A DNA stretch of 64,000 nt from Eledone cirrhosa. Taxonomy: Eukaryota. The position numbers and the translations under genes are program-made. Numbering within the stretch: the stretch's first letter is position 1; each line of letters begins with the position of its first letter. This document shows, in pieces, positions 897 through 63,611 of this stretch. The notes beneath the pieces are model-generated. The model had not been told where the DNA came from, made no database searches, and saw nothing but the letters and a program-made list of their open reading frames with translations. The stretch lies in the NCBI GenBank assembly GCA_964016885.1, contig OZ024742.1, positions 252,278,001 to 252,342,000 on the forward strand, in the 5' to 3' direction.

Positions 897-1580
897 AGAC
901 AACGGATGAGGAACCCCCCACCCTGTTCTTGCTTTCTTCGTATTCCCACTGCATTTTAAGTTACCTTAACTAGCAACTACACAGCCATTTCTATTCTCCA
1001 TATATTTCATCATGTTTTTCGCTGTGACCATTCTTCTCTCCCCTTCTACCTACCTATTTCGCCACTTTCTACTCTCACCCCTCTTTCTTCCCCTCCCTTT
1101 CTCTCTATCTAATCTACCCCACTTTCTTCCTCTCCCTTTCTCCCTCTCACTTTCACCCGCTCGTCTGACCGTTTAGCAGTTCTCTTCTCCCTTACAACTG
1201 CGGCGATCGGACGTGTGTCTTTTCTCTCGATTACTCGGTCTCGAACTTAAGTTCTATCATCGAGTGGTCTTCGATTTCCTACCTATAGTTGCTCGCACAT
1301 TGTTCGGTTTGTGTTGTTTTTTTTGCTGTTTTGTTACTGTTTCTCTTTTCTTCCCCTTTGCTTCCCTTTCCCCCTTCCTTCGTTTTCCCAAAAACTTATC
1401 CAGTTATTGACGCCCTGGGGTGAAGTAGTATCTTGTCTTTAAAGCGTAGACATATCCTAGACCCCCAGTAGACAACTGATGAGGACCCCCGCCTGTTCTT
1501 GCTTTCTTCGTATTCCCACTGCATTTTAAGTTACCTTAAATAGCAACTACACAACCATTTCTATTCTCCATATATTTCAT
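897..1580 (+). mobile_element. Non-coding partial-tandem element (pseudo-LTR-like) between TA tracts
   Basis: Direct repeat 897-1010 / 1470-1580 (period 573) around a CT-rich interior; no credible ORF. Confidence 0.65.
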
Positions 1581-1600
1581 TATATATATATATATATATA

Positions 1601-3005: not shown

Positions 3006-3279
3006 CGCCATATTTTTCTTTCTGATTTTTTTCTGCCATGAAGTGATTTGACTTGTCGAGTTCGGATTGTTTTCTGCAAATTCACCTGATTATTTTCCCT
3101 GTCATGGACACTTGAGAACATCTATATTATTTTTTTTTCTCTTTCGTTCTTCCGTCTTTATGGATGTTGAGGGAAATTTGTGCTGTTTTCCCGTCGTTCT
3201 GAACATCTAAAGAAATTTCTGCATTCTTTTTACGCGAATATCACTTACTTTTATACGTCCAAGTGGATATAGATTGACG

Positions 3280-4062
3280 ATGAGTGGTCCTAATTTACCT
3301 GCGTTCTCAGGTGATACCAAACTCTGGTTTGCACAACTCGACGCATATTTCGCTGCGAACGGAGTGAAAACAGAGCAGAAGCTCAACGTTTTGATAAGCG
3401 GCATTCCTTCTTCACTCGCTACAACGGTGAAGGATTTGATAACGAACCCGTCGGCCGGTATTTCATATGATTCGTTACGGGAAGAAATACTTCGAAGAAA
3501 CAGTCGTTCTGCTGAAAGCAGATTTCGTTCATTGTTGGGGGACGAGTGTTTAGGCGACAGGTCACCGTCCGAGTTTTTACGCCACATTCGGGACCTCAGC
3601 GAGTCGCCCGAAAAGGATAATTCATTCATAAAAAAATTATTTTTCTCTCGCCTGCCAAACAACGTCCAAATTATTTTGGCAAACATAGTGGATACCAGCT
3701 CTTTGGAGCAGATTGCTGCCTCCGCGGATCGAATCGTGGAATTTTCTAAAAAGGCTACCGCCCCGGACTCGTGTATTGTTTCCTCACATTTGAACCAGCC
3801 CGTCTCGACACGCGAGGATGCCATTTTAACAGCTATTGACGCTTTGTCGCAGCAAGTCGCTCGGTTATGCAGGGAGAATAGGCCGTATTCCCGGCGGCCT
3901 AGGAGTTGTTCGCGTTCTTTCGCGACTCCACGTTGGCATACTACTTCGCCCGCCAGCAACCCATTATTTTGCTGGTATCATGCCACCTTCGCGGATAAGG
4001 CAAAACATTGCCGGCCTCCATGTAAATATTCAGCTTCGGGAAATGTAGATAAGAGTCACTAA
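3280..4062 (+). CDS. gag: Gypsy Gag
   Basis: Open ORF with [26 protein letters not shown] and a C-terminal CWYH..F...A..C..PC zinc motif. Confidence 0.9.
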
Positions 4063-6645
4063 AGGCGGCAAGTGAACTCTGCGAGACACAACGGAACCGC
4101 CATTTCTTCATAGAGGACCTCCTGTCTGGAAGAGCCTTCCTAGTAGACACAGTAGCTTCGTGCAGTATTTGGCCTGTTAATACTATGACAGTAACTCCTC
4201 CCGAGTCGTCGATTGAATTGCAAGCTGTCAACCAGTCACCAATCCGAACTTTCGGACAGATCTCGTTTCCTCTTCAGTTCCGAAATCTTCGTCGGGATTT
4301 CAAATGGGTTTTCACTGTTGCTGATCTGCCATACCCGATTTGGGGCGCGGACTTCCTGCACCATTTTTCTTTGACGGTGGACGTCCGTCACCAACGCCTA
4401 GTCGATGATATTACTGGTTTTTCTCTTTGTGGCAGGACGGCGGAATATTCTACAGTTAGCCCGACATTCTTCATCGCTAACCCCAGCAACCCATATCATG
4501 GATTGTTGAAATCGTTCCCGCAACTGACTCATGAAAATTTTAGAGTCACTGATTCAGGCCACGGTACGGAGCATTTTATTACTACTACTGGTGCTCCGGT
4601 TTTTTCGCATCCCCGTCGATTGCCAGCGGACAAACTGAAAGCAGCACGGTCCGTGTTCGACCATATGCTACAGATCGGAATTATTCGTCCTCATACGAGC
4701 CCGTGGGCATCTCCATTACATATGGTGCCAAAATCTTCTGGCGATTGGAGACCCACTGTGGATTATAGAAGATTGAACTCGATGACCGTACCGGATCGGT
4801 ATCCTATCCCTCATTTGCAGGATTTTGCAACATTTTTTCGATACTCGATTTGATACGAGCCTACAACCAGATTCCTGTCAACAGAGACGACATCCCGAAA
4901 ACGGCTATAATTACGCCATTTGGATCTTTTGAATTTCTCAACATGACTTTCGGGTTAAGGAATGCTGCTAGCACATTCCAGCGATTTATGGATGAGGTCA
5001 CTCGCGGCCTCGACTTTGTATACACATATATTGATGACCTTCTTGTTGCGAGCTCTTCTCCAGAGCAACATTTGCGCCATCTGGACCTTCTATTTTGTCG
5101 TTTGAAGGATTACAATGTTCGGGTTAATCCATCAAAATGTGTTTTTGGTTCCGAATATCTGAAGTTTTGGGGTCATGTCATTGACGCTGACGGTATTCGA
5201 CCTATTCCTGAGAGAGTTAAAGCTATAGAGGATCTGCCTCCACCAACCTCACTCCGTCAGTGGCGCCAATTCTTGGGGCTGATTAATTTTTATAGGCGGT
5301 TTGTGCCTAATTGTGCTAAGCTACTCTTCTCTTAGACGGAAATTTTGAAAAATTGCCGAAAGAAAAATAAAGACATTTCTTTGAATGAAACTCAGCTCGA
5401 GGATTTTGAGAATGCGAAAATTGTTCTAGCCAATGCATCTTTGCTGGCTCACCCAGTGTCCAATGCTAAGCTTTCGCTTTGTGTTGATGCGTCGGATACT
5501 GCCGTGGGCGCAGTTTTGCAACAAAGTAGGAATGATCAACAGCAACCGTTGGAATTTTTCTTCAGGAAGCTGAAACCTGCCGAAACCCGCTACAGCACCT
5601 TTGGACGGGAGTTGCTAGCTATATACTTATCGGTGAAGCATTTTTCGCACATGCTTGAAGGAAGAACGTTCACCATCTTCACGAACCACAAGCCGTTGAC
5701 ATTCGCCTTGCAAACAAAGGCCGACAAATACTCGCCCAGAGAAACTAGACATCTCGACCTCATCTCTCAATTTACTAATGATATCCGACATATTCCGGGT
5801 TCTATGAATACAGCGGCCGACGCCCTGTCTCGTTTGCCGATTGCTGCGATCTCGTCGTCCGATGACATAGATTTGAATCGCTTGGCAGCCGATCATCCTA
5901 CCCTCGAATCGTTGGATGTTACATCGTCTGAATTTGTGAATTGCAGGATGAAATACCTACCATTATAGACCGCAGACGGACGGATCCTCTGCAACGTCTC
6001 TTTGGATGCGCCACGCCCTTTTGTTCCGTTGAACCATCGTCGAACTGTGTTTCTTGTTTTACACGGCATTTCACATCCAGGATCTTCTGCCACAGTAAAA
6101 CTCATAACGGCTAGATTCTTCTGGCCAAATATGAGACGTGATATTGCTGTCTGGTGCCGTTCCTGTGTTGCTTGCCAAAAATCAAAAGTTCACAGGCATG
6201 TTAAGACTCCTCTAGGTACTTTTAGTAACCCGGACGCTCGGTTTCGCCACATTAATGTGGACATCGTGGGACCTTGGCCAATCAGTGGTGGTCATAATTA
6301 CATATTGACTGTTATCGATCTGCAGTCCCGAGGGATATTGCTTCGTGGACCCATGTGTTTGTGAGAAACGATGCTGTGAGACCACCTCTCACACAACCAT
6401 ACTCTGGACGCTACCGTGTATTAGCTCGTTCTGAGAAACATTTCACTGTAGACATTAAGGGTTCCAGAGAGACGGTTTCGATTGATAGACTCAAACGAGC
6501 ACATTTGGACACAAACGCCCCCGTCTTTTTCTTTCGCACACACACCTGCTTCCCCCCCCCCCTCATCACCAAGATATAAGACTACGACCCGTTCCGATCG
6601 GAGGGTTCATTGGCCTAAAAAACTGTGTAGCACGGTATATTTTTA
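4038..6645 (+). pseudogene. pol: Gypsy pol with stops, frameshifts and integrase-core deletion
   Basis: FLVDTVAS (protease), [47 protein letters not shown], then a jump to the PYSGRY (GPY/F) region. Confidence 0.93.
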
Positions 6646-20813: not shown

Positions 20814-23800
20814 TCATCATCATCATCATCATCATCATCAACGTTTAACATCCGTGTTCCACGCTTGCATGGGTTTGGACGGGGGTAGTCCCACTTGAGG
20901 CAAGATTGATTTTCTTGCTCGCATAGGACTGTCTGGCAGGTTTTCTACAGTTGGATGCCCTTCCTAACACCAACCACATTTACAGTGTGGGTCTGGGAGG
21001 TTTTTACCGTGTTGCCTACACGGCCACATTACAGCGTGGACTGTGTGTTTTTTTGTCGTGACACCTACACGATCTCATTTGTTTCGGCCTGGATGGCGCG
21101 GCACCAACATAACTTTACATAGAACGGGGTGGTGTGGATGGGGTGGGGTGGTGGTGGTGGGACGGGGTGTATTTTGTTAGAGATGCCTACTGGCAAGGCG
21201 GGTCTTCTCTATTACTGAGTACCGCCAAAGGTCTCGGTCCAGTGACATTGTCTTGGTGAGGTGTAAGTGTGTGAGGTCGGAGTTTATCAGCTCGTCCCAG
21301 GTTTTTCTGGGTCTGCCTATTCCGTGGCTACCGTCTATCTTTATTGCCCTGCACTTTGTTATACAGCTATCATCCTTCATGCGCATCACGTGACCATACC
21401 AACGTAGCCTTCTCTCTAGTAAACAACATCTGATCCCTCTTATTTCTAATTTTTTCCTTAGTTCGTTTATGCTTTGTCGTTCACGTATATTACTATTACA
21501 CATCCAGCGGAGCATGCAAGCTTCGTTTCTCTCTAGTCTGCGTATATCCTCTGCACACAATGCCCAGGTCTCACTGCCATGCAACATTGCTGTTCGTATG
21601 CAGGCATCGTACAGCCTGCCTTTCATTTTTAGGGAGAACCCTTTAGCGGCTAATAGTGGTATAAGCTCTCTGAACTTTTTCCACCCAGTTCTGACTCTAG
21701 CTACTGTACTTTCAGAGCACCCTCCCCCACTGCTGATTTTGTCACCCAGGTAACGGAAGCTGTCCACTATTTCTATAGAACCCTCTGCGCAGTTGAAAGA
21801 GCTAGTATTTTGTGGGCACTTGCTGCTACTTATATCCCCAGAACACCGGCCACATGTAAAATCTATGTTCTTAGTTAGCTTACCTGTGATCCCACTACAT
21901 CTTTTATGCACCCAAACTTTGCATTTGGGACACAAAATGGAATTTCTACCTACGCCTTTCCTACACTCTGCGCATGGCCACTTCCCGGAGGGGACCGCCG
22001 CCTTATTTTCTTTCTTACAAACTAGAACTTTAGTCTTAGCTAGGTTAATTTTAAGGCCTTTTGATTCTAGGCCGTGCTTCCATGTTTGGAATTTCTTCTC
22101 TAGCTCGGCCATTGATTCAGCTATGAGCGTAAGATCATCTGCGTATAGGAGTTCCCATGGGCAGCCGGTCTTGAACTCCACTGTTATAGCCTGGAGGGCA
22201 ATAATAAATAGTAGGGGGCTAAGAACAGAGCCCTGATGAACACCAACTTTTACACTAAACTCTTCACTATATTCGTTGTTAATTCTAACCTTGCTAACTG
22301 TTTCTTTATACATGGCTTGTATAGCTCTCACAAGCCATTCATCAACACCTAGTTTTCTAAGAGCCCACCAGATAATGGAACGGGGGACTCTGTCGAAGGC
22401 CTTCTCCAAGTCGACGAAAGCTAAGTATAGGGGTTTACTTTTAGCTAGGTACTTCTCCTGTAGTTGTCGTACAATGAAAAGAGCGTCTGTGGTACTTTTT
22501 CCTGACACAAACCCGAACTGCATTTCATCTAGATCAATTCGCTCTCTGATTAGTTGCGCTATAACTTTTTCCGTGACCTTCATGACCTGGTCGATTAATT
22601 TAATGCCTCTATAGTTACTCCTATCTAGGGCATCTCCTTTACCCTTATAACAGTTAACGATAATGCTGCTGCGCCAGTCCTTCGGAACAACCCCATTCTG
22701 TATGACTTGGTTGACTATCCGGGTGACCATGGTGTGTCCCACCGTACCAGATGCCTTCAGCATCTCGGCAACTATTTCCGAAGGCCCAGCCGCCTTGCCT
22801 GTCTTCATATCTTTGATTGCCTTACTTATTATACTACCCTCGACTAACACTGCTGGTCCCTCTATTGGGTCGATGTGGGGGAGACTGTCTTTCTCCCATT
22901 TATTCTCCTCATTTAGTAGCCTTTCATAGTGACACTTCCAAGCTACCTTCTTATCGGCGTCGGTGATGGCAAGTATGCCGTCATCGTTAAGTACACACTT
23001 CTCCCCGACAATATCACTGTTTTCCTTGACACATTGCCTAGCAATCCTGAACACCTCACGTTTTTGGTCATCGCGTTGTAGAACATGCTTGAACTTTCTT
23101 TCCTCTGCTTCCCTTCTTGCGAAGTACACTTGTCTCCTAGCTTCCCTCCTGGCCACTTGATAGTCTTCTCTGCTTCCCCCATCCCGCCATACTTTCCAAG
23201 CCTGCTTTTTGGCCTTAATTGACCCCTCCACCTTACTGTTCCACCACCATGTTACTCTCCTCCTGCCCACAGGCCTGCTCCAGCCACAGACTTCGTCTGC
23301 CGCCGTCAGCAGGTTTGCTTTCAGGAATTCCCACTGTTCCTCTACCTTGTACGTCTCTAATTGCTCTTCCTCACTGTCGAAAGCATCAAGTAATATGCTT
23401 TGGAATTTATTTTTGGCTGTGGGGTCCTTTAGCTTCCATATTTTTCTCCTGAGGATAGTCCTCTTCTGTTGTCTAGTACGTCTCGTCCTGACTATTAGGT
23501 CGCTAATTATCAGTCTATGTTGGGAAGTGCATTCTTCATGGGGGAGGGATTTAGTGTTTACGACAGTCACTTTGTCACGTCTTCTGGTAAGGATATAATC
23601 TACCTGGCTAGTATGTTCCCCTGATCTGTAGGTGATCAAGTGATTGTCTCGTTTTTTGAAGTTAGTGTTACAGATAGTTAGGTTATTTGCGTCGCAGAAT
23701 TCCAGGATTCTGGAGCCTTCCTCATTTCTAGTACCAAACCCATAGCCTCCATGGATTTCGTCGTAGCCGTCACAATGTTGTCCAACGTGACCGTTTAGGT

Positions 23801-24400
23801 CGCCTGCAATAATTATATAGTCACTGTCGGTTATTTGGGAGGTAGTGAGCATCAGTGTCTCATAGAATCTGTCTTTTATAGTGCTGGGCAGTCCGGATTG
23901 GGGTGCGTACGCGGATATTACTGTCACCGTAGTTCTATTGAGGACAAGTCTTATTTTAATTATTCTGTCGTTCACTCTATTTACGTCTATTATCTTATCT
24001 GCCCACTTTTCTGCTACCATGATTCCTACTCCACCCAGCCCATTGTCGTTTCCCACCCAGAAAAGCTTATAGCATCGTTTTCTACCCACAATGTATCTAG
24101 CAGATCCACCCCTCCACCTGGTCTCTTGGATACAACAAACATCGACCTCCTTACGTTCAAGCATTTCTACAACCTCGTTAGAGCGACCCTTTAAGGTGCC
24201 TACATTCAAGGTACCAAATCTGAAGTTTTGGATTGCGTTTGGGGGGGTTGGAAAGGTGGGGAGCGGGGGGAGATGGGGTTATGTTAGCCATCCGCGGCCG
24301 AAACAAAGAGGCATGCTCGCATTTTCGTCCTCGAGGTGTGATTGTCTTTAACTTTGGCATTGTCGCTGAGCGTCCAGATTTTTCTCTCTTCAACTCTCCG

Positions 24401-25648: not shown

Positions 25649-26785
25649 TTTATATATATATATATATTTATATATCATCATCATCGTTTAATGTCTATCT
25701 TCCACGCTAGCATAGGTTAGACAGGAATTGTCCCATTTGAGGCAAGATTGGTCGGATGGCCGTGTCTCGCTTGTTAGGACTATCTGGCAGGTTTTCTATG
25801 GCTGTTGGCAGGTTTTCTATGGCTGGATGCCCTTCCTAACACCAACTACATTTACAGTGTGGACTGGGAGCTTTTTATCGTGTTACCTACACGACCACAT
25901 TACAGTACTTTTTCTTTTGTACGACCTCATTAGTTTGGACTGGACATTGTGGTACCAACATAACTTGTGCCTAGGTCTTGTGCCTAAAGTAGAAATCCTT
26001 ATTATTATTATTATTGTTTTTGTTGTAGTTGTAGTTGTATAAATAATTTCTGTTGGCATCTATAGATGGGTCTTTAGTTGTAGTGTAGTGGGAAGAGGGA
26101 GTGTGCTCAAGACATACATACATAATGGATACATATCGATTTTGAGAATTGCCATCACTTGATCTTTTTCTAACATATGGGTGGCATAAACATGGCTTTT
26201 TAGCCCTGCGAAAGGCTTATATTCGGCAGCAAAAGAAAAAAAAAAGGAGCATTTTTCGACTATGGTCAGCCAAGTTCATGCGACTCATGTGAAAAATGTT
26301 TAGATGAAATGATGCCTGTGCTTGAACCTTTTTAAAGTAGAGAAAAGCTTTGCACTGGACCAATCCTAAATATCTGAACATCAGGTTAACATCATTAGCT
26401 GCTACTGAATCGCAGATTTTACATCAGTGTTTTCCTTATCCTCGAGTGATGACAATTAGTCCCTCACTCTCGGTTGGCTAACTTTATAGAGAAAGGGTGG
26501 TGTTGGCGGGAGTGGAAGGATGGAGTAGGTGTAGTGGGTGGGGGTGTATGTTTGGTTTAGAGGGGCCTACTGACTGTAGCTTAACCTTGCACATAGGAAA
26601 GGGAGGTCTTCTGTGTGGTGCCAAAGATCTTGATCTAGTGACATTGTCTCAGAGAGGTGCAAGTGTGCAAGGTCGGAATTTATCAAGTCGTCCGAGGTTT
26701 TTCTGGGTCTACCTACTCTGTAACTTCCATATATATATATTCAATGATATTAAATAAATGGAAACTATATTTATAAAACCATATT

Positions 26786-26850
26786 TATTTTATTATATAT
26801 ATTTCAAGGGTAACCAAGACAACATTGGTACGCTTTCATCAGATAAAATA
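26786..26850 (-). ncRNA. Type I hammerhead ribozyme motif
   Basis: tattttat CTGATGA aagcgtaccaa tgttgtc ttggttaccctt GAAA tatata TA ataaaata; 8-bp stem I. Confidence 0.82.
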
Positions 26851-26993
26851 CAAAGTTTGTTTTATAAATAGAGACATACCCATGAAAATCATACCTTATC
26901 GGTTGGAAATTCAGTGGATAGTCTATCCAGTGAATTTCCAACCAATAAGGTATGATTTTCATGGGTATGTCTCTATTTATAAAACAAACTTTG

Positions 26994-27049
26994 TATTTTA
27001 TCTGATGAAAGCGTACCAATGTTACCCTTGAAATATATATAATAAAATA
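26994..27049 (+). ncRNA. Type I hammerhead ribozyme motif (shortened stem II)
   Basis: tattttat CTGATGA aagcgta ccaatgt taccctt GAAA tatata TA ataaaata; predicted cut after 27041. Confidence 0.78.
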
Positions 27050-27183
27050 AATATGGTTTTATAAATATAGTTTCCATTTATTTAATATCATTGAATATTT
27101 ACTCCAGTAACTTGTTGAGTGCTCTAAATCAGTTATAAACATTTATGTTTGTCGGTCTTCCAACAAATTAAATACCACTTCTA

Positions 27184-28941: not shown

Positions 28942-30850
28942 TACTGTAGTAAAAGTTAGGTGGAAATATCCAAGGGTAAGAGCACTCATTCTAGGACATC
29001 TTCCACCTAACTTTTACTACAGTAATCAGCTCCAGAAACTTATTGTGACCAGCAGATTCTTACACGAATGTATGATTGGCAAACCACTTTAAACTGTTGA
29101 GCACTATATATATCTGAGTACCCAATGCAACGTGAAGATGGACCTCCATGAGATTGATTATTCCCTGAAGAATATACCGAACCCTTCACGCAGGACTTAC
29201 TCTAAACTCCTTCTCCATAAGGTTGAAGATGTGGTCAAGTGATTGAGATGAAGAACATTGGCCTTTGATGGAATGCTGTCAAATTCTGCCAATATTTTCA
29301 ACCTCAAGTCTAGAAAGTACCCACCTAAGGTAAATGAACTTGCTAGCTTTGAGGCTGATCTTCTTCATCTTGTTGCTAACGTTTCTTTCCACAAACAATC
29401 CAATTCTTTTCAAAACAAAATAAGTAGAAACATTAAAAACTTCAGATCCTCTGATGGAGCGTTTGTCCTATTTGATAAAATCAACAACCTGTATAAATTA
29501 GATCAGTCCACCTATAACCAACTTCTTAACAACTTCTCAGGCAAAATACAAAAAAGCTGACACTGTTACCTATTATGCCATGAATACTGAGGCGAAGGAT
29601 ATAGCCTCCACCCTTAGAGTAGATAACAAGTTAGAGTGCTTGGTTAGGAGAGAGGCTTATATTACCCTTAAGGACCATAAGGATGACTTTGCCAACAAAC
29701 CAATTTGCAGACTCATAAACCCTGCTAAAACAAAGCTAGATCTTGTTAGTAAGGATATACTTTGGAAAATTAATATAGCCATTAGGAAACAGTCATACCT
29801 TAATCAGTCAACCGTTATAGATTGGTTTAATGTCCTCAAACACATTAAGAAAGCTAGGTTTACACAATTTGATATTATTGACTTTTACCCCTCAATATTC
29901 ACAACCTTACTTGATAAGGCCCTTGATTTCGCTACTAAATTTACTAACATAGATGATTTGGACTGATTAAACATAATCCACTGCAGGGAAACCCTCCTCT
30001 TTAGCAACAGTGACCTGCGGATAAAACATCAACTACCAATAACTTATTCAATGTACTGATGGGATCATTTGACAGCATTGGTATATGTGATCTGGTGGGC
30101 CTGTTTATTCAAGACACTATACAGAATAAATTCCCTAACTTCCATACAGGCCTATATTGTGATGACGGTCTGGCACTATCCAGCCATAAAAGTGGCCATG
30201 ACCTGGACACCTTTAGGAAAAACTTAATCGCTACCTTCAACAGCCTAGGTTTAAAAATTACGATAGCCATTAATCGCACCAATGTCAACTTCCTAGATAT
30301 TAACTTAGACCTACAGACATGCACATATAGACCATTTTACAAACTCAATGAGAAACTTTGGTACATCGATAAGGACTCTAGCCACACACCCCTATAGTTT
30401 TCAAAAACCTTATTAACAACATTAGTAAGAGGGTTTCCAACTCCTCCTCTAGCAAAGTCATCTTTGATAGGGCAGCACCCTACTATAATTCAGAACTGCG
30501 TAACAGTGGCTTCTCCAAAAAAATTGCGTACTCTCCAGATCACCGCCCTACATCTAATAAGAAAAAACCTTGACATAAAGATGTCATATGGTTTGCACCA
30601 CCTTTCTCACTTAATAAACGAATGAAGGCAAAACATTCCTAGGCCTCATAGATCTCCATTTCCCTGGTAGCCATAAATACCGAAAGATATTTAATCGCCA
30701 TGCAGTAAAAATAGGATACTCTTGCACCAACAATGTTAGATCCTACATCATTGGCAAACACAAAAGCCCTCCACCATACGGATGCTCATGTAGAAGACCT
30801 GAAACATGTCTACTAGACCAACAGTGCAACACTCTGGTGGTGATACACCA
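28942..30850 (+). mobile_element. Decayed Penelope-like element (Naiad-like RT), 3' part lost
   Basis: ATG 29138 MDLHEIDYSLKNIP; CRLINPAK, FDIIDFYPS, MGSFD, GLYCDDGL, FLDINLDL, KIFNRH, CSC..C..C; 5' inverted repeat 28942-29024. Clade assignment is from recalled motifs. Confidence 0.88.
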
Positions 30851-38469: not shown

Positions 38470-41098
38470 CTTAATGCACACTACTGCCCTAATAAACGAC
38501 AATGACTTCCTAATCATTGCAGGAGACTTTAATTGACATGTTGGGAAACACTGTGATGACTTCTATAGAGTCCATGGAGGCTACTGATTTGGCACAAGAA
38601 ACGAAGAAGGCTTCAGGCTTCTAGAATTCTGCAACGCCAATGACATGTCGATATGTAACAAAAACTTCAAAAAACCTGACAACCACCTGATCAGCTATAG
38701 ATCAGGGAGGCATTCCAGTCAGACAGATTTTATCCTTATCAGAGGACGAGATAGATGGACGGTTGTAAACACAAAAGCCTTCCCTGGTGAGGATTGTACC
38801 TCTCAACATAACTTAGTTGTCAGCGACCTCATTGTCAGAACTAGAGGAACTTGGAAACAGAAGGCAACCCGGAGTAGAAAGATTTGGAAGCTGAAAGACC
38901 CCTCAGCCAGTAACAGATTTAAAGATATCTTACTTGATGCCTATGACAGTAAAGAAGAACAGATAGAGACATTCGATATAGAAGAGCATTGGGAATTCCT
39001 AAAAAATAACTTACTAAAGGCGACAGATGAGATCTGTGGCTGGAGCAAAGCCACAGAGAGAAGGAGAGTGACTTGGTGGTGGAACAATAAGGTAGATGAG
39101 GCAATTAAGGCTAAGAGACAGGCATGGAAACAATGGAAGAATGGGGGGAGCAGTGTACATTACATAGAGACCAGGAGGGAAGCTAGGCAACAACTATACT
39201 TAGCTAGAAGGGAAGTGGAGGATAACAAATTCAAGCATGTTTTGCAGTATGAGGACCAGAAACAGGAGATGTTTAGGATTGTGAGGCAGTGTATTAGAGA
39301 AAATTGTGATGTCATTGTTGAGAAGTGAGTCCAGGATGATAAAGGGGAGCTTGCCCTCACAAGTGCTGAGAAGAAAGATGCATGGAAGAGCCATTATGAA
39401 AGATTACTGAATGAGGAGAATGCATGGGAGAAAGAGACCCTATCCCAAGTGGACCCCATAGAGGGCCCAGCAATACAAGCCAGCAGCAGTGTAGTAAGTA
39501 AGGCAATTAAGGATATGAAGACTGGGAAAGCAACCAGTCCATCGGGTATAGCTGCCGAGATGCTGAAAGCATCTGGGTCGGTAGGTCACACCATAACCAC
39601 ACGAATTGTTAACCAAGTAATACTAGAGGGTGTCATACCAAATGATTGGCACAACAGCATCATTGTCAACAGCTACAAGGGTAAAGGAGATGCACTAGAT
39701 AGAGGAAACTATAGTGGTATAAAGCTGATGGACCAAGTCATGAAAGTAACAGAAAGATTTATAGAACAGCTGATTAGGGACCGGGTAAATCTAGATGAGA
39801 TGCAGTTCGGATATGTACCAGGGAAATCACCACAGATGCCCTCTTCCTGGCGAATCAGTTACAGGAAAAGTACCTAGCTAAAATTAAGCCACTCTACTTG
39901 GCATTTGTTGTTCTGGAGAATGCTTTTGACAGAGTGCCTCATGGCATAATCTGGTGGGGTTTTAGAAATCTAAGAGTAGATGAATGGCTTGTGAAGGCAG
40001 TACAAGCCATGTAAAAGGGATCAGTCAGCAAAGTTAGGGTTAACAATTACTATAGCGAAAAATTTAGCATACAGGTCGGTGTCCACCAGGGCTCTGTTCT
40101 TAGCCCTCTCCTGTTTATTATAGTATTGCAGGCTATAACAGAAGAGTTTAAGACCGGATACTCATGGGAACTTCTGTATGCGGATGATCTTACACTTATA
40201 GCAGGGCCTAGAAAGAAGGGGTCTCAAAGTCAACCTGACAAAGATTAAGGTTCTCATAAGTAGAAGAGAAAACAGAAACCATATCCCCTCAGAGAAATGG
40301 CCTTGCTCACTATGTAGGAAAGATGTAGGTAGAAATTCCATCCTCTGCCCCAAATGCAAACTATGGGTACACAAGAGATGTAGAGGGATCTCAGGAAGTT
40401 TAGCAAAGAGTGTAGGCTTTACATGTAGCAGTTGCACCGGGACAGTAAGCAGCAAATGACCACAGGAAACAAGGACTACCAAATTCTGGGAGGGCTTGGT
40501 AGAAACAGTAGACAGCTTCTACTACTTGGGTGACCAAATTAGCATGATTTGAAAGTACAATATCCAGGGTAAGAACGGGATGGAAGAAGTTCAGGGAGCT
40601 ACTACCACTGCTAGCGGCAAAAGGCTTTTCCCTCAAAATGAAAGGCAGACTGTATGATACGTGCATACGAACAGCAATGTTCCATGGTAGTGAAACCTGG
40701 GTGTTATGTGCAGAAGACTTGCGTAGCTTAGAAAGAAATGAAGCCTGCATGCTGTGATGGATGTGTAATAGTAATATACACAAACACCAAAAGATAAATG
40801 AATTGAGAGAGAGACTAGGCATAAGAGGAACAAATGCTGTGTGCAGGAGAGGAGATTACGTTGGTATGGACATTTGATGCACATTGTAAAGTGGTCGTGT
40901 AGGCGCCACAGTAAAAAAAGCCCCCAGTTCTCACTGTAAATGAGGTTGGTGTTAGGAAGAGCATCCAGCTGTAGAAATCAAGGCAAAATCAGTTCTGTAT
41001 GAGCAAGACATGGTCACCTGGATGGATATTTCTCACAACAGGACAACTCGTCTAACTCATGCTAGCGTGGAAGAATGGACATAAAATGGTGATGATGA
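38470..41098 (+). mobile_element. Decayed RTE LINE
   Basis: Fragmented endonuclease-RT-PHD ORF, YADD near 40176, 3' UTR and ATG tail. Confidence 0.95.
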
Positions 41099-49858: not shown

Positions 49859-51465
49859 TCATCATCATCATCATCATCATCGTTTAACGTCCCTGTTCCA
49901 CGCTTGCATGGGTTTGGATGGGGGTTTTCCCACTTGAGGCAAGAGTGGTTGTCTTGCTCGCATAGGACTGTCTGGCGGGTTTTCTACAGCTGGATGCCCT
50001 TCCTAACACCAAACACATTTACAGTGTGGGGCTGGGAGGTTTTTACCGTGTTGCCTACATGGCCACATTACAGCGTGGACTGTCTGGCGTGTTTTCTACA
50101 GCTGGATGCCCTTCCTAACACCAACCACATTTACAGTGTGGGACTGGGAGGTTTTTACTGTGTTGCCTACACGGCCACATTACAGCGTGGACTGTGTGTT
50201 TTTTTGTCGTGACACCTACACGATCTCGTTTGTTTCGGCCTGGATGTTGTGGCACCAACATAACTTTGCATTGAAGGGAGCAATGTGGATGGGGTGGGAC
50301 GGGGGTGTATTTTGTTAGAGATGCCTACTGACTAGTAGGTTTTACTTTGTATTTAGGTAAGGCGGGTCTTCTCTGTTACTGAGTACCGCCAGAGGTCTCG
50401 GTCCAGTGACATTGTCTTGGAGAGGTGTAAGTGTGTGAGGTTGGAATTTATCAGCTCGTCCCAGGTTTTCCTGGGTCTGCCTACTCCGTGGCTACCATCT
50501 ATCTTTATTGCCCTGCACTTTGTTATACAGCTGTCGTCTTTCATGCGCATCACGTGACCATACCAACGTAGCCTTCTCTCGAGTAAACAACATCTGATCC
50601 CTCTTATTTCTAATTTTTTCCTTAGTTCGTTTATGCTTTGCCGTTCACGTATATTACTATTACACATCCAGCGGAGCATGCAAGCTTCGTTCCTCTCTAG
50701 TCTGCGTATATCCTCTGCACACAATGCCCAGGTCTCACTGCCATGCAACATTGCTGTTCGTATGCAGGCATCATACAACCTGCCTTTCATTTTTAGGGAG
50801 AACCCTTTAGCGGCTAATAGTGGTATAAGCTCTCTGAACTTTTTCCATCCAGTTCTGACTCTAGCTACTGTACTTTCAGAGCACCCTCCCCCACTGCTGA
50901 TTTTGTCACCCAGGTAACGGAAGCTGTCCACTATTTCTATAGAACCCTCTGCACAATTGAAAGAGTTAGTATTTTGTGGGCACTTGCTGCTACTTATTGC
51001 ACCAGAGCACCGGCCACATGTAAAATCTGTGTTCTTAGTTAGCTTACCTGTGATCCCACTACATCTTTTATGCACCCATACTTTGCATTTGGGACATAAA
51101 ATGGAGTTTCTACCTACGCCTTTCCTACACACTGAGCATGGCCATTTCCCGGAGGGGACTGGCGCCTTATTTTCTTTCCTACAAACTAGAACTTTAGTCT
51201 TAGCCAGGTTAATTTTAAGACCTTTTGATTCTAGGCCATGCTTCCATGTTTGGAATTTCTTCTCTAGCTCGGCCATTGATTCAGCTATGAGCGTTAGATC
51301 ATCTGCGTATAGGAGTTCCCATGGGCAGCCGGTCTTGAACTCCTCTGTTATAGCCTGAAGGGCAATAATAAATAGTAGGGGGCTAAGAACAGAGCCCTGA
51401 TGGACACCAACTTTTACGCTAAACTCTTCACTATATTCGTTATTAATTCTAACCTTGCTGACTGT
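49856..51465 (-). mobile_element. 5'-truncated RTE LINE, close relative of 20814-24403
   Basis: ORF 50353-51276 nearly identical to the C-terminus of the long copy; ~112-bp tandem duplication in the 3' UTR (49965-50195). Confidence 0.96.
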
Positions 51466-53284: not shown

Positions 53285-53324
<40 letters not shown>

Positions 53325-53327
<3 letters not shown>

Positions 53328-53910
53328 AAAATGGGGAGAAAAATACGGCTGGTAGCACATGGATAACATGTAATAAAATAAGTCCCTCATCAGTGATTTG
53401 CCGACGATCATAGATATTTCATTGCATTAAAAATCATATACCTCACGTCGGTGCAATAATAACTAAATTAAGTTATTAGGACAATTAAAACGCGTAAAGC
53501 GAGTGAGACAGGAAAACAACAAAGAGTAGAGCTAACCGTAGAGGAAGGAAACAAGCTTCATAGTTATTCTGTTAGCATAAGCTAGGTGAATATATGAGCG
53601 CTTAGAAAAAAGACCTTTCGCGAACGAATGCAATGTAAGAAAGAGAGAAATTGCTTTCGTTGCGAACGGGGTGAAGTGAGGAGAGGAGAAACAGTGAGTG
53701 AGTGAGTGGAAGTGTGAGGAAGAGTTAACTGACATGACAGAGGGGGCGAAAGAAAGTAGGAGAAACAGAGAGAATGAGGGAGCAGTAAGAGAGAGAGAGA
53801 AAAAAACAGAATCGCAGTTTAGGTAAATATATGTGAGAAAATGGGGAGAAAAATACTGCTGGTAGCACATGGATAACATGTAATAAAATAAGTCCCTCAT
53901 CAGTGATTTG
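53325..53910 (-). mobile_element. Non-coding partial-tandem element, same architecture as 897-1580
   Basis: Direct repeat 53328-53400 / 53838-53910 (period 510), CT-rich interior on the minus strand, TA tracts on both sides. Confidence 0.7.
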
Positions 53911-55756: not shown

Positions 55757-55761
<5 letters not shown>

Positions 55762-56595
55762 GAAAGGCAGGTTGTACGATGCCTGCATACGAACAGCAAT
55801 GTTGCATGGCAGTGAGACCTGGGCATTGTGTGCAGAGGATATACGCAGACTAGAGAGGAACGAAGCTTGCATGCTCCGCTGGATGTGTAACAGTAATATA
55901 CGTGAACGGCAAAGCATAAACGAACTAAGGAAAAAATTAGAAATAAGAGGGATCAGATGTTGTTTACTCGAGAGAAGGCTACGTTGGTATGGACACGTGA
56001 TGCGCATGAAAGTCGATAGCTGTATAACAAAGTGCAGGGCAATAAAGATAGACGGTAGCCACGGAATAGGCAGACCTAGAAAAACCTGGGACGAGCTGAT
56101 AAACTCCGACCTCACACACTTACACCTCTCCAAGACAATGTCACTGGACCGAGACCTTTGGCGGTACTCAGTAACAGAGAAGACCCGCCTTACCTAAATA
56201 CATAGTAAAACCTACTACAGCCAGTAGGCATCTCTAACAAAATACACCCCCCCCCCGTCCCACCACCCCCACCCCATCCACACCACCCCATTCTATGTAA
56301 AGTTATGTTGGTGCCACACCATCCAGGCCGAAACAAATGAGATCGTGTAGGTGTCACGACAAAAAAACACACAGTCCACGCTGTATTGTGGCCGTGTAGG
56401 CAACACGGTAAAAACCTCCCAGACCCACACTGTAAATGTGGTTGGTGTTAGGAAGGGCATCCAACTGTAGAAAACCTGCCAGACAGTCCTATGCGAGCAA
56501 GACAATCACTCTTGCCTCAAGTGGGACTACCCCCGTCCAAACCCATGCAAGCGTGGAACACGGACGTTAAACGTTGATGATGATGATGATGATGA
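55757..56595 (+). mobile_element. 5'-truncated RTE LINE (young family)
   Basis: [21 protein letters not shown].., 3' UTR, (ATG)n tail. Confidence 0.96.
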
Positions 56596-59071: not shown

Positions 59072-59963
59072 CAGGGTGTTGACGATATTTGTTCGCAATT
59101 TTCAACTGCTAATTTTGTGCAAATCTTTTTTACTTCTGTTGTCACACTTGTCTTCATAAAAACAGTGACTATATTTCCATTATTTATTTTCAGAATAATT
59201 GATTATGAATAATTTTGAACCTCCAAATTTGTGGAAGAGTCACAGAGTCCTTCTTGGAATCCGTGCCAGGAGCACAAATAAGGCCAGAAGATCAACTCCC
59301 AGAACAACAGGTGGCTCGCTGTCTCATCCAAAGATGTGCCCAGAGTCATGCAGACAAAGATTCCAGCGGCAACATTGGTCTTAGGTGTCGTCAGCAGTCA
59401 AGGTGACGTCATGCCACCTCACTTCTTCCCTGAGGGCCTCAAGCTGAACACCGATGGCTACATCCACGTTCTGAGCGAGGTGGTAAAGCCCTGGATCGAC
59501 CAAGTAGCTGCAGGTAGGCCGTATGTGTGGCAGCAAGACTCAGCGCCCTGCTATACCAGCTGAAAGACCCAAGCCTGGCTGTCAGAGAATTTCGTCGACC
59601 ACACTTCACCTGACATCTGGCCTCCCAGCTCGCCTGACTGCAACCCCCTCGACTTCTTTGTGTGGGGTGCAGTGGAATGAGACACCAACAGATCTAGCTG
59701 AAATATGAAAGCCGATCTGAAGGCCAGGATCACAAGTGCCTTTAGGGGCCTAAGTCGGGGGACAGTGACGAAGGCCTGTAGCCGGTCCCGAGGCCACCTT
59801 GCGGCTGTCATCAAAGCTAATGGAGGGTTTATCAAGTGAGATCGAAAGAACAATTCATGAAGACAAACTGACCCAAGTTTGATAAGTAAATCTTAAAAAA
59901 TAAAACTACTGTGTTATTTTTTCCTAGACAGTAATCTTGCGAACAAATATCATCCACACCCTA
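59072..59963 (+). mobile_element. Tc1/mariner DD37D (maT-type) deletion derivative
   Basis: ~27-bp TIRs with TA flanks; QQDSAP..WPPSSPDCNPLDFFVW with 37 residues between the second and third D. Confidence 0.9.
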
Positions 59964-60099
59964 TATATATATACGTATATATATGTGTATATATATATAT
60001 ACGTATATATACGTATACATATATATACATATACCTATATATATACATATAGATATATACGTATATATATATACGTATATATATATATACATAAACAGC

Positions 60100-63000
60100 A
60101 ATAACACTAACCATGTTAGGGCTGCACACGGTAGTTGTGTGGCTAGTGAGGCCATGTGTGAGAACCCCACGACCGTCATCAAGCAATCACACAACAGGAA
60201 AAAGAACGAGACGTCGCATCTCAGAGTTGCCACACTAACAGGTAGATCTGGTGAGATAGCGGAGATGCTGGAGAGAAGGCATGTGGATGTGTGCTGTGTG
60301 CAAGAGGTGCGATGGAGAGGTGCCTCTGCAAGACTAATCGCAGGCAAACATCGTAGTTATAAGCTTTTCTGGGTGGGTAATGATAATGTGTTAGGTGGGG
60401 TGGGCATATTACTGGCTGAGAGGTGGATCAATAAGACAATAGAGGTAATTAGAGTTAGTGATAGAATAATTAAGCTTAGATTAGTTGTAGGCAAGAGACT
60501 ACTGACAATCATCTCTGCCTATGCTCCCCAGACACGCCTAGGCAAAGAAGAGAAGGACTGCTTTTACGAGCAACTTTTAGAAACAGCCTCAATAACAGAG
60601 GATGGAGACATTGTTATGCTAGCAGGGGACTTCAATGGACATGTTGGACAGCTCCAGGATGGATACACTGGGGTACATGGTGGGCACGGTTACGGCTCAA
60701 GAAATGAAGAAGTGACACTTCTTGAATTTTGTGATGCAAATGCACTAACCATTTGCAACACTAACTTCCAGAACCCTACCAACCACCTAATAACCTACAA
60801 ATCAGGTGAGCACATAAGCCAGATTGACTTCCTCCTAGTTAGACAGCGAGACAGACAGATGGTGTCAAATACTAAGGCATATCCTAGGGAAGAATGTACC
60901 CCCACAGCATAGGTTAGTCGTTAGTGACATCTCAGTAAGCATGAGAAAGAATGAGACATACAGGAAGGTGTGAAAAAGAAAGGTCTAGAAGCTAAAAGAC
61001 CTTTCATTAAAATATAAATTTACCAAAGCCCTTCAAGATGTGTATGACGAAAAAGAAGATGATTTAGAGTCGTATGACATAGATGATAACTGGAATTTCT
61101 TACTTGACAACTTACTGCAGGCTACTGAAGAAACTTGTGGTTGGGGTAGAGCTTCAACAGACAGAGAGTGATCTGGTGGTGGAACAGCATGGTAGATAGG
61201 GCCATTAGAGACAAAAGACTGGTATGGAAGGCTTGGAAAAATGGTGAGAGTAGGGAAGCTAGATGTCAGGTGTACTTAGCACACAGGGAGGCTGAGAGTA
61301 GGAGGTTTGCTAATTTTCTGTGACGGGAAGATCAGAGACGTGCGGTATTCCGCATTTCAAGGCAGTGTGTCAGTGCAAATCAGGATGTTGCTGGAGATAA
61401 ATGTGCCTGGAATGATGCCGGTGTACTTAGTGTCACAAATGATCAAAAAAAGGAGGCCTGGAAATGTCACTATGAGAGACTGATGAATGTGGAGAATGAA
61501 TGGGACAGAGAGAAATTACCCCAGTAGACCCAACAGAGGGACCAGCTATTGAGATTGACGAATATAGGGTACAAAAGGCAATTAAAGAAATGAAGAATGG
61601 AGATAGTTGCTGAGATGCTGAAGGCATCAGCTGAAGTAGGTATTAAACTAGTTGCACGCATCCTCAATCAAGTTATATATGGTGGTGCCATACCCAAAGA
61701 CTGGTGCAGCAGTATTCTCATAAATTGCTACAAAGGTAAAGGGGATGCTCTAGAGAGGAGCAATTATAGGGGCATAAAGCTGATGGATCAGGTTATGAAA
61801 GTGGCAGAGAGAATATTAGCGCAACTGATTAGAGAAAGGGTCAAATTAGATGAGATGCAGTTTGGTTTTGTGCCTCGGAAAAGTACAACAGATGCTCTCT
61901 TTTTAGTGAGGCAACTACAAGAGAAGTTCTTAGAGAAGAATAAGCCACTATACTTAGCTTTTGTTGACCTAGAGAAGGCCTTTGATAGGGTCCCCCAATC
62001 TGTCATCTGGTGGTCCCTAAGGAAACTAAGTGTAGAGGAATGGCTTGTGAGAGCAGTGCAAGCTATGTACAGGGGTGCTGTCAGTAAAGTGAGAGTAGGT
62101 ATGGAGTTTAGTGGGGAATTCCAGATACAAGTAGGTGTACATCAGGGTTCGGTCCTCAGCCCGCTCTTGTTCATTATAGTCCTCCAAGCCATGGGAACTT
62201 CTCTATGCTGATGATCTGGCTCTTATAGCAAAATCAGTAGAGGAGCTAGAGAATAAATTCTGGCTATGGAAACAGCAGTTGGAAGCAAGAGGACTGAGAG
62301 TGAACATAGCTAAGACAAAAGTGTTGATAAGTAGAAGAGAGGACAATACTCCGATTCCATCAGGGAAATGGCCATGTTCGATATGTAGGAAAGGAATGGC
62401 ATAAATTCCATAAAATGTACGCAATGCAGATCTTGGGTACACAAGAGATGTAGTGGGATAGCAGGCAAACTAATAGGTAGGGAAAACTATGTATGTAGTA
62501 GATGTACAGGGAAAGTTAACAGTATTAATCGCAGTGATAGACACATTTTTCCAATACAGGTGGGTTCTATAGAAGTGGTTGATAGCTTCTGGTACCTAGG
62601 TGATCAGATTAGCATGGGAGGCGGGGGGGGGGGGGGGGGGGGTCCGAGGCCATAGTTTAGAATAAGGACGGGTTGGAGGAACTTTAGGGAGCTGCTTCCT
62701 TTGTTGACAAAGAAGGGTTTCTCCCTGCGTACAAAAGGACGGTTATATGATGCCTGTGTGAGATGCGCGATGCTGCATGGTAGTGAGACATGGGCGGCAA
62801 CTGCAGAGGATATGCGACGGCTGGAGAGAAATGAAGCAAGTATGCTCCGTTGGATGTGCAATGTCAATGTGCCTGAACGACCAAGCATAGACGAGTTGAG
62901 AAAGAAACTGGGTATAAGAGGGATAAGTTGCGGTGTGCAGGGGAGAAGGCTGAGATGGTATGGACATGTGATGTGCATGGAGGATGACCACTGGGTGAAG

Positions 63001-63217
63001 AAGTGCCAAGAAATCCCTGTAGAAGGAAGTCACAGTAGAGGTAGACCACATAAAACATGGGCAGAGCTGGTGAGAGCAGACCTCAGATCGCTGAAACTCA
63101 CCGAGGAGATGACGAAGGACCGTGACAAGTGGAGAGATGCTGTGTTGAATAGGACCTGTCCAACCCTTGCAAGAGGAAAAAGCAGACGTAAAATGATGAT
63201 GATGATGATGATGATGA
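60100..63217 (+). mobile_element. Decayed near full-length RTE LINE (second family)
   Basis: Endonuclease ORF to 60912, RT 61597-62211, PHD remnant, C-terminus 62701-63190, (ATG)n tail. Confidence 0.95.
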
Positions 63218-63611
63218 TATATATATATATAATATAACATGTATATGGATGTATGCATACAGTATATTAAATAAGATGGAATGCAAGCAAAGAGGGGCAC
63301 CTCCGCTCCATCTAGGAGGATGACACTGCTGGTTATGCCTAGCGGAAGCAGTGGAAATAATAAAACTGAAAAAAAAACGGTATAAACGTGAGGCCTCAAA
63401 TCTTGATGAACTGTGTGCACCAGCACACCCACCTGTTCAACAGTTACATGGATGAGCAGAACCTAAGAAAACCAAGTAATTCACAGCCATATATCGACCA
63501 AACACACAGGCAAGCGAAAGAAATCTATTTGTACACTCTTCTTCTACTTATAACTCTTTATATACATCTGTACACAATCTCTTAATTATTACAGTCATTA
63601 TTATTACCAAG

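Follow-up and report, generated by a model that had tools for sequence, protein, structure and literature searches.

A probable rearranged hammerhead ribozyme with a split stem II near the 3′ ends of non-coding Penelope-like repeats of Eledone cirrhosa and of Naiad retroelements

Repeats carrying the motif

The window, i.e., the whole analysed stretch of 64,000 nucleotides from Eledone cirrhosa (contig OZ024742.1, positions 252,278,001 to 252,342,000), was found to contain two non-coding repeats, each consisting of one partial-tandem unit (~573 nt and ~510 nt, respectively) that is set in (TA)n and closed by one copy of the motif described here (copies 1 and 2).

897..1583, + strand: non-coding repeat of family F1, a unit of ~573 nt plus terminal repeat (897-1013 found again at 1470-1583, 92%)
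53323..53910, - strand: non-coding repeat of family F2, a unit of ~510 nt plus terminal repeat, with (TA)n tracts on either side
53910-53892, - strand: partial putative ribozyme opening the F2 repeat

The F1 repeat starts at its 5′ end inside a truncated and decayed putative ribozyme and ends at (TA)n at its 3′ end. No ORF was found in the repeat units. An earlier note on this DNA had described the motif from two copies only. Searches of the 3.0-Gb assembly yielded 1808, 948, 1831, 2142, and 439 candidates for families F1, F2, F3, F4, and F5, respectively, which are first-look candidates, 40 of them scored per search, and not copy numbers. Families F3, F4, and F5 were first met in the flanks of other copies, and the genome was thus shown to contain five fold-bearing repeat families. 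The top F2 matches were 99-100% identical and included long tandem arrays, and we consider F2 to be very young. The repeats showed the organization of Penelope-like non-autonomous (retrozyme-like) elements, with partial tandems, variable 5′ truncation, fixed and tailed 3′ ends, a microsatellite target and no ORF. At two loci (L003 and L021), a satellite of ~63 nt consisting of an internal F1 piece and (TA)n was present 5′ of the F1 motif.

Besides these repeats, the window contains a Gypsy-like LTR retrotransposon remnant (3211-6364, +) with stops in its gag, protease, RT, RNase H, and integrase frames and an RVT_1 match in the scanned RT piece, a LINE (21177-24278, -) with an open frame of 1033 aa encoding an endonuclease, an RT and a PHD finger, and LINE fragments at 38588-39877, 50353-51465, 55760-56197, and 59935-63237. 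Long near-perfect inverted repeats at 1866-1972 and 2560-2850, which represent head-to-head insertions of the Penelope-like element (PLE) type, gave rise to spurious microRNA matches in Rfam, and microsatellite noise was present among the matches listed for the whole-window Rfam scan (150 of 251). At 26780-27070, two minimal type I hammerheads of canonical form lie in inverted orientation (CUGAUGA at 27002 on the + strand and 26842 on the - strand); their stem III is palindromic, and the arrangement is typical of the end of another PLE. A broken RT-first Penelope-like fragment is located at 29502-30397 (+), and its genomic relatives contain open frames of 714-719 aa; one PLE family of that kind (L157-L159) is flanked by canonical type I hammerheads. 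The motif was rejected as the end of this RT-first PLE, as it was present in three of 20 extended loci and gave no sign of ending the element. At L225, the motif was shown to be a separate insertion past the 3′ UTR and another repeat, and not part of the element with a C-terminal endonuclease. Tandem units of ~490 nt that follow a PLE ORF (L215:7196-9700 and L216:4260), with CUGAUGA and GAAA words on both sides, represent a different hammerhead-like repeat.

Organization of the predicted fold

Comparison of the copies showed a predicted fold of six helices, i.e., stems I and III and helices A, D, E, and F. Positions such as U16.1, C17, and A14 follow the established hammerhead numbering.

Copy 1
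1382..1388, + strand: E′ strand, partner of the bases 3′ of CUGAUGA (~3 bp left in copy 1, compared with 7 bp in the F1 copy L029)
1389..1409, + strand: hairpin F, with one mismatch in copy 1
1410..1413, + strand: D strand, the 5′ segment pairing with 1444-1447 in place of stem II
1415..1420, + strand: helix A 5′ strand, pairing with 1463-1468
1421-1432, + strand: bend strand (1421-1426), stem III 3′ strand (1427-1431; U16.1 = 1431) and C17 (1432); predicted cut after 1432
1433..1443, + strand: stem I 3′ strand (1433-1438) and UUAAA linker
1444-1456, + strand: D′ (1444-1447), G block GACA (1449-1452) and stem III 5′ strand (1452-1456)
1463..1485, + strand: helix A 3′ strand (1463-1468), stem I 5′ strand (1470-1475), CUGAUGA (1476-1482) and start of the E strand

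Copy 2
53482-53453, - strand: E′ (53482-53479), hairpin F (53478-53457) and D (53456-53453), the 5′ strand of a predicted intact ribozyme
53451-53443, - strand: helix A 5′ strand (53451-53446) and non-bulged strand UGA of the putative kink-turn (53445-53443)
53442-53437, - strand: stem III 3′ strand (53442-53438) and A17 (53437); predicted cut after 53437
53436-53421, - strand: stem I 3′ strand (53436-53431), UUAAU linker (53430-53426), D′ (53425-53422) and U (53421)
53420-53413, - strand: GAAA (53420-53417) and stem III 5′ strand (53417-53413)
53412-53401, - strand: putative kink-turn bulge and GAU (53412-53407) and helix A 3′ strand (53406-53401)
53399-53382, - strand: stem I 5′ strand (53399-53394), CUGAUGA (53393-53387), G (53386) and E strand (53385-53382)

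Both strings reported in the earlier note were found where it had placed them, with CTGATGA at 1476-1482 (+) and 53393-53387 (-), and its two 6-bp stems do cross (1415-1420/1463-1468 with 1433-1438/1470-1475 in copy 1, and 53451-53446/53406-53401 with 53436-53431/53399-53394 in copy 2). The first of these stems, A, corresponds to helix A, an extension of stem III, and the second, B, to stem I. The boundaries given in that note left out the 5′ third of the fold (1382-1413 and 53482-53453). The segment 1400-1500, which had been proposed for in vitro transcription, lacks helix strand E′ and half of hairpin F, and copy 1 has a core substitution, so that a cleavage assay of this segment could give a false negative.

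As in a hammerhead, stem I flanks CUGANGA and the predicted cut, and stem III contains the A15.1-U16.1 pair. The direct stem II of a hammerhead, formed by the strand after CUGANGA and the strand before GAAA, is reduced to 0-1 bp. Instead, the bases preceding GAAA and a segment further 5′ form helix D, which takes the place of stem II, differs in sequence from family to family and comprises only 4-5 bp in F1-F4, and the strand after A9 pairs with the 5′ end to form helix E. On sequence comparison, helices E, F, and D were shown to meet with the core in a predicted four-way junction under the core, and a second junction, with three arms and a UUAAW-type linker, to form where stems I, D, and A come together at their distal ends. 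In a circular reading, the motif has the order C-S-G (CUGAUGA, cleavage site, GAAA), with the RNA ends located in helix E, which is inserted between A9 and position 10.1. Nematode Naiads, as parsed by eye, have this cycle opened at another place (type CSG).

Stem III probably folds back onto the core through a kink-turn or a bulge of 2-10 nt, and the cage formed by the bent stem III may replace the usual contact between loops I and II. In a kink-turn, tandem G-A and A-G pairs follow a bulge of 3 nt. By sequence, F2 and F3 agree with these rules, F4 has A-U at 2b-2n, and a 6x6 loop is present in F1. At the bend of F5 and most Naiad copies, there is a plain bulge (7 nt in F5) without the GA/GA motif. 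The stems of F5 differ from those of the other families, with compensatory stem I variants among 30 aligned copies.

If this long-range cage were too strained for a monomer, the hammerhead might depend on dimerization, on neighboring tandem units or on a host protein. The elements are indeed present as tandems, canonical PLE hammerheads often need dimers (PMC6765202), and a similar geometric problem was pointed out for some SGC ribozymes by Eckert et al. (PMC10085705). However, stem III is a normal helix of 4-6 bp rather than the short palindrome that is behind dimer dependence, and the bend, in the form of a kink-turn or bulge, has been conserved at the place at which a monomer would require it. 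We therefore consider dependence on dimers improbable.

The kink-turn-like sequence is also relevant to the suggestion in the earlier note that the motif might be a SECIS element or a kink-turn hairpin. A SECIS element has a GA quartet, a helix of 11-13 bp and apical AA, and is located 3′ of a UGA-recoded ORF. Tandem G-A pairs beside helix A are present in F2 and F3, and narrow Rfam scans at the motif gave nothing beyond two low-scoring C/D snoRNA matches for copy 2 (17-19 bits vs. cut-offs of 65-85), which could be taken to indicate a box C/D hairpin. Only 5 bp follow the GA pairs, and a SECIS, stand-alone kink-turn or box C/D hairpin would leave helices D, E, F, and I and the core bases unexplained. 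Naiads are relevant in this respect, since they can carry SECIS elements (PMC8557442): a SECIS_1 match above the Rfam cut-off was found at L403:1987-2048, 250 nt past a Naiad ORF on a metagenome contig, in a UTR without a hammerhead core. The Rfam library that detects this SECIS gave no SECIS or hammerhead match for the motif. Since the units have no ORF, Rfam gave no SECIS match, and F5 as well as most Naiad copies lack the GA/GA motif, we regard this explanation as very improbable for the motif as a whole; what stood of the suggestion was the kink-turn-like motif in some families and the relevance of Naiads. The further option of alternative folds proved unneeded, as both the ribozyme-like and the kink-turn-like features are parts of one fold, the hammerhead fold described here.

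Core bases and order of the blocks

In copy 2, GAAA was found intact at 53420-53417, upstream of CUGAUGA and within the loop of stem B, i.e., stem I. Copy 1 has GACA at 1449-1452 in place of GAAA (A14 = C), a variant seen in three of 30 F1 copies. The hammerhead core of CUGANGA, GAAA, and UH bases is thus complete, being exact in copy 2 and having one substitution (A14) in copy 1. The statement that no GAAA half follows CTGATGA was literally correct, as a downstream GAA closing a stem of at least 3 bp within 120 nt was found for only 8 of 206 motif matches, but it was misleading, as the GAAA is located upstream.

GAAA was kept in 27/30, 44/46, 43/52, and 41/42 copies of F1, F2, F3, and F4, respectively, and CUGANGA in 27/30, 46/46, 50/52, and 37/42. 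Position 17 was C, A, or U, with G in only one of 170 copies of F1-F4. GAAA runs on into UAYC, and its partner GGUAU directly precedes C, A, or U, which gives stem III and position 17. In 17 diverse representatives, U16.1-A15.1 was invariant and position 17 was A in eight, C in seven and U in two, while the other stem positions showed two to four pair types each.

A descriptor in which the core bases were fixed and every stem sequence was free gave one exact match in the window (copy 2) and two matches with one mismatch (copy 1 and a chance-like match at 29349-29478), and 25 dinucleotide shuffles of the window gave no exact-core and three one-mismatch matches. This shows that the motif in the window is not due to chance. 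No Rfam hammerhead match was obtained at the motif copies in narrow scans at E 10.

The order of the blocks is cleavage site, GAAA, CUGAUGA (S-G-C), a non-circular permutation; the circular order C-G-S of type I, II, or III hammerheads was not found in the motif. The earlier note had considered a permuted type II (G-S-C) hammerhead with a variant core, which would correspond to a type II ribozyme with a loop I pseudoknot. Of this proposal, the hammerhead-like nature and the cut site (after C1432 and after A53437) agree with our predictions, and stems A and I do cross. But a type II ribozyme needs GAAA 5′ of the cleavage site, whereas the conserved GAAA is located 3′ of it and pairs through stem III, and the TGAAG/TGAGG sequence that was taken as the G block varies (GGA and TTA in F3 and F4). 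With the core complete, and since the conserved GAAA is 3′ of the cleavage site, a type II assignment has next to no probability. For the S-G-C hammerhead, copy 2 is predicted to be active and copy 1 to be slow or dead, because its A14 is C and helix E is weakened.

Covariation and folding

Pairing of the stems was kept in a larger alignment of 15 sequences from this genome, with 91.8% of 510 cells paired, 25-45% in slid controls, and changes on both sides at 13 of 34 pairs. The covariation score was 0.304, compared with 0.164 ± 0.013 in shuffles. As the members of this set are related, the structure was drawn from them and two F1 rows are one column off register around D, covariation within the genome is regarded as supporting evidence only. 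No covariation of helix E was seen within F2-F4 in this set, and helix E comprised only 2-3 bp or was ambiguous at five Naiad loci.

In a permutation test on 16 representatives with fixed windows and 20,000 permutations (floor p 5e-5), helices A, I, D, E, and III all favored their own partner (p 5e-5 each), while direct stem II showed no such preference (p 0.36). Helices A and E had played no part in the selection of the metagenome Naiad matches. Contigs of two other organisms showed paired changes in helix A (53449/53403) and helix D (53455/53423), based on a comparison that covered four of the 24 listed runs. Nested folding of copy 2 yielded E, F, A, and III unaided, with modest MFE z-scores (-0.6 to -2.2). 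The pair counts leave out a MAFFT alignment of diverse Naiad copies, which was in poor register.

Presence of the fold in Naiads

Craig et al. (2021; PMC8557442) reported Naiads to be without canonical hammerheads, used the flags ‘HHR_core’ and ‘HHR_half_core’ without giving a structure, and asked whether hammerheads merely parasitise PLEs. In the supplement of that paper, the matches listed cover 55 of 62 CTGATGA places and 19 of 43, 19 of 23, and 19 of 25 places for three other spellings. Among these records, the ends of Naiad_Bfor, Amil, Aacu, Anas, Obim, and Ovul (octopus, coral, and ctenophore) could be parsed by eye as the motif fold, and the 3′ ends of the nematode Naiad-1, -2, and -3_Nbra as type CSG. 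The octopus Naiad records and F2-F4 have the loop of hairpin F, the kink-turn-like sequence and the flanks of the core in common.

From 80 Naiad loci on metagenome contigs, 51 were kept after removal of 21 in which the match fell short of the ORF end and eight with less than 200 nt after the ORF. A descriptor that was agnostic to block order found matches in 14 of the 51 3′ UTRs (~11 families), all in sense orientation and all S-G-C, compared with 0/51 in antisense and 0/153 and 0/102 in single-base shuffles. In these 14 matches, direct stem II was 0-1 bp and D 5-6 bp. In all 12 parsed Naiad copies, helix D started with a G whose partner is the C preceding GAAA, which resembles the canonical pair 10.1-11.1, and in several of them the E, F, D junction had no unpaired linker. 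The metagenome loci carrying the fold have the domains that define Naiads (N-terminal GIY-YIG, CxC, DKA, and C-terminal RT in one element), which are absent from the non-coding F1-F5, including the elements in the window. Among the 37 UTRs without a match, 33 had no CUGANGA and four had one only at the ORF end. Twister ribozymes were rejected as an explanation of these negatives, as a crude word search (one sense, three antisense) gave no support. Rfam gave no ribozyme match in 20 Naiad loci, four of them motif-positive. The exact F1-F4 pattern had no match in metagenome, viral, and prokaryote contigs, and no Naiad relatives were found in the viral contigs.

A protein search of this genome (stricter first look) yielded no intact Naiad ORF, all 53 matches being broken. 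Protein searches gave only stop-laden fragments, and remnants were found with a motif-pattern search; another motif pattern matched an unrelated element. No clear ribozyme was present in the 3′ UTRs of the Naiad remnants except for two decayed motifs in L295, which are weak evidence. Old decayed families with the same fold were seen at L171, L172, L175, L234, and L295:1222-1651, with a D helix of 6 bp as in published octopus Naiads; the two motifs in L295 are located directly 3′ of a truncated Naiad RT. The regions 3′ of Naiad RT remnants at L281-L300 have a long common 3′ UTR with a conserved, structured-looking block and no recognisable hammerhead core. A 14-base motif search gave seven matches vs. 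11 in the control, and three of the seven were decayed members of the motif fold. No Naiad remnant was found clearly joined to F1-F5. As there is neither an intact ORF nor such a junction, the link of F1-F5 to Naiads rests on shared architecture and shared short features. Judged from these sequence comparisons, the fold very likely serves as the ribozyme in much of the Naiad clade and in the retrozyme-like repeats that descend from this clade.

Ends of the insertions and mobilisation

In 108 top-scoring loci, the 3′ ends were fixed and the 5′ ends variable, with two 3′ sites ~45 nt apart in F3 and F4. The fixed 3′ ends and (TA)n targets resemble the tail and internal priming of PLEs (PMC11167929). 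In a zone of -15 to +50 around the previous predicted cut, there were 21 5′ ends in 993 nt at risk, compared with 65 in 22,017 nt elsewhere; this corresponds to 2.1 per 100 nt vs. 0.30 in the unit body (~7-fold; nominal p 8e-11), counting ends >110 nt upstream at loci that were top BLAST hits and with a zone picked after seeing the data. Six of the 21 ends in the pile-up fall upstream of the predicted cut, and stalling of the RT at the structure would give a similar pile-up.

A cut after position 17 would free unit-length RNA from tandem or read-through transcripts and fix its 5′ end, and a Penelope-like RT/endonuclease acting in trans could then use internal sites located 70-180 nt beyond the cut for priming at (TA)n. 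Other PLEs in the genome keep long open frames, and one family carries canonical type I hammerheads; from their domain order, they may be Nematis-like and Neptune-like. Since all Naiad matches of the genome are broken although F2 is very young, and since other PLEs have long open frames, we infer mobilisation in trans.

Many insertions retain an uncut 3′ ribozyme, and five scored 5′ ends reach past the previous cut zone. Together with the pair under the core, which is G-A or A-A and not the canonical G-C at 10.1-11.1 in F1 and most F3 copies, this would fit a fold that is real but non-catalytic, either a relic or a protein-binding signal (serving RT loading, priming, or the stability of the RNA) in which hammerhead-like words are retained. 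Such a fold does not account for the conservation of the core bases, of U16.1-A15.1 and of a base other than G at position 17 across unrelated stems and lineages, nor for the G-C pair beside GAAA in 12/12 metagenome Naiad copies, and we consider it unlikely.

Thus, the motif is most probably a rearranged (S-G-C) hammerhead with a split stem II, which is located near the 3′ end of Penelope-like repeats and Naiads and is predicted from sequence to cut itself after position 17 (1432 and 53437). A wider reading is put forward tentatively, and we consider it more doubtful than sound: Naiads may be the main natural home of non-circularly permuted hammerheads, in a caged two-junction form with the RNA ends inserted at the link of A9 to G10.1, which has been taken to be unbreakable; the bend in this lineage may be a true kink-turn, making cleavage switchable by a host protein of the L7Ae family; and, once the Naiad partners of the young ribozyme-bearing repeats had died out, a different Penelope-like clade may have copied these repeats in trans.

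Comparison with known systems

No published account of permuted hammerheads from Naiads or from the genomes of animals was found in the literature covered, subscription literature and preprint supplements being largely outside this coverage. The motif offers a concrete and testable answer to the stated gap that Naiads lack canonical hammerheads (PMC8557442), and it moves non-circular RNA permutations from metatranscriptome RNAs of uncultured organisms to high-copy repeats of animal genomes. As a compact natural sequence with a predicted cut and six mutable helices, it allows the claim to be tested quickly.

Non-circularly permuted SGC, CSG, and GCS hammerheads were described by Eckert, Friedrich, Weinberg, and Weinberg (2023; PMC10085705), who assumed the blocks to be uninterruptible; type-SGC ribozymes were reported there only from metatranscriptomes, with none in genomes of known organisms, and cleave at the analogous site. 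Like type SGC (HRIMA-1 and variants), the motif has the S-G-C order, mutually crossing helices, the core bases, the predicted cut, a short linker joining stem I to the bases that precede GAAA and an extra helix that ties the far ends of the stems. It differs in that helices E and F and the bent stem III extension are added, in its location in animal DNA at high copy, and in its split stem II, whereas stem II is direct in the published SGC ribozymes (CGAAA with CUGAUGA(U)G). The published SGC descriptor (direct stem II of at least 2 bp, CGAAA, CUGAUGA(U)G) was passed by 0/178 F1-F4 and truncated copies, so that activity of the split form is extrapolated. We regard the motif as a real and conserved hammerhead-type fold with a layout for which no match was found in print; it is best classed as probably working like type SGC rather than as a member of that type. 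Hammerhead variants with a reduced stem II, reportedly of type I with a one-pair stem II and long-range pairing, are said to have been described in a 2015 paper. Type CSG, based on two metagenome sequences (PMC10085705), shares the cyclic order C-S-G and keeps A9 joined to stem II, whereas the RNA ends of the present motif are located in the helix inserted at that link.

As split stem II and the second junction break the block assumption of published searches, type I screens and SGC descriptors would miss this retrozyme-like class; the 2026 retrozyme preprint (bioRxiv 10.64898/2026.07.22.740005), for one, screens for type I only. Like the Naiads of PMC8557442, the repeats have a 3′ location of the motif, (TA)n targets, partial tandems, inverted 5′ copies and a tail, but those in the window are non-coding and the Naiad ORFs of this genome are broken. 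Non-LTR retrozymes and canonical PLEs carry a type I (C-G-S) hammerhead, which is often minimal, whereas F1-F5 would escape a type I screen. Similar to F1-F5, non-LTR retrozymes consist of non-coding tandem units of a few hundred bases with one ribozyme each and are PLE-derived (bioRxiv 10.64898/2026.07.22.740005; PMC6765202).
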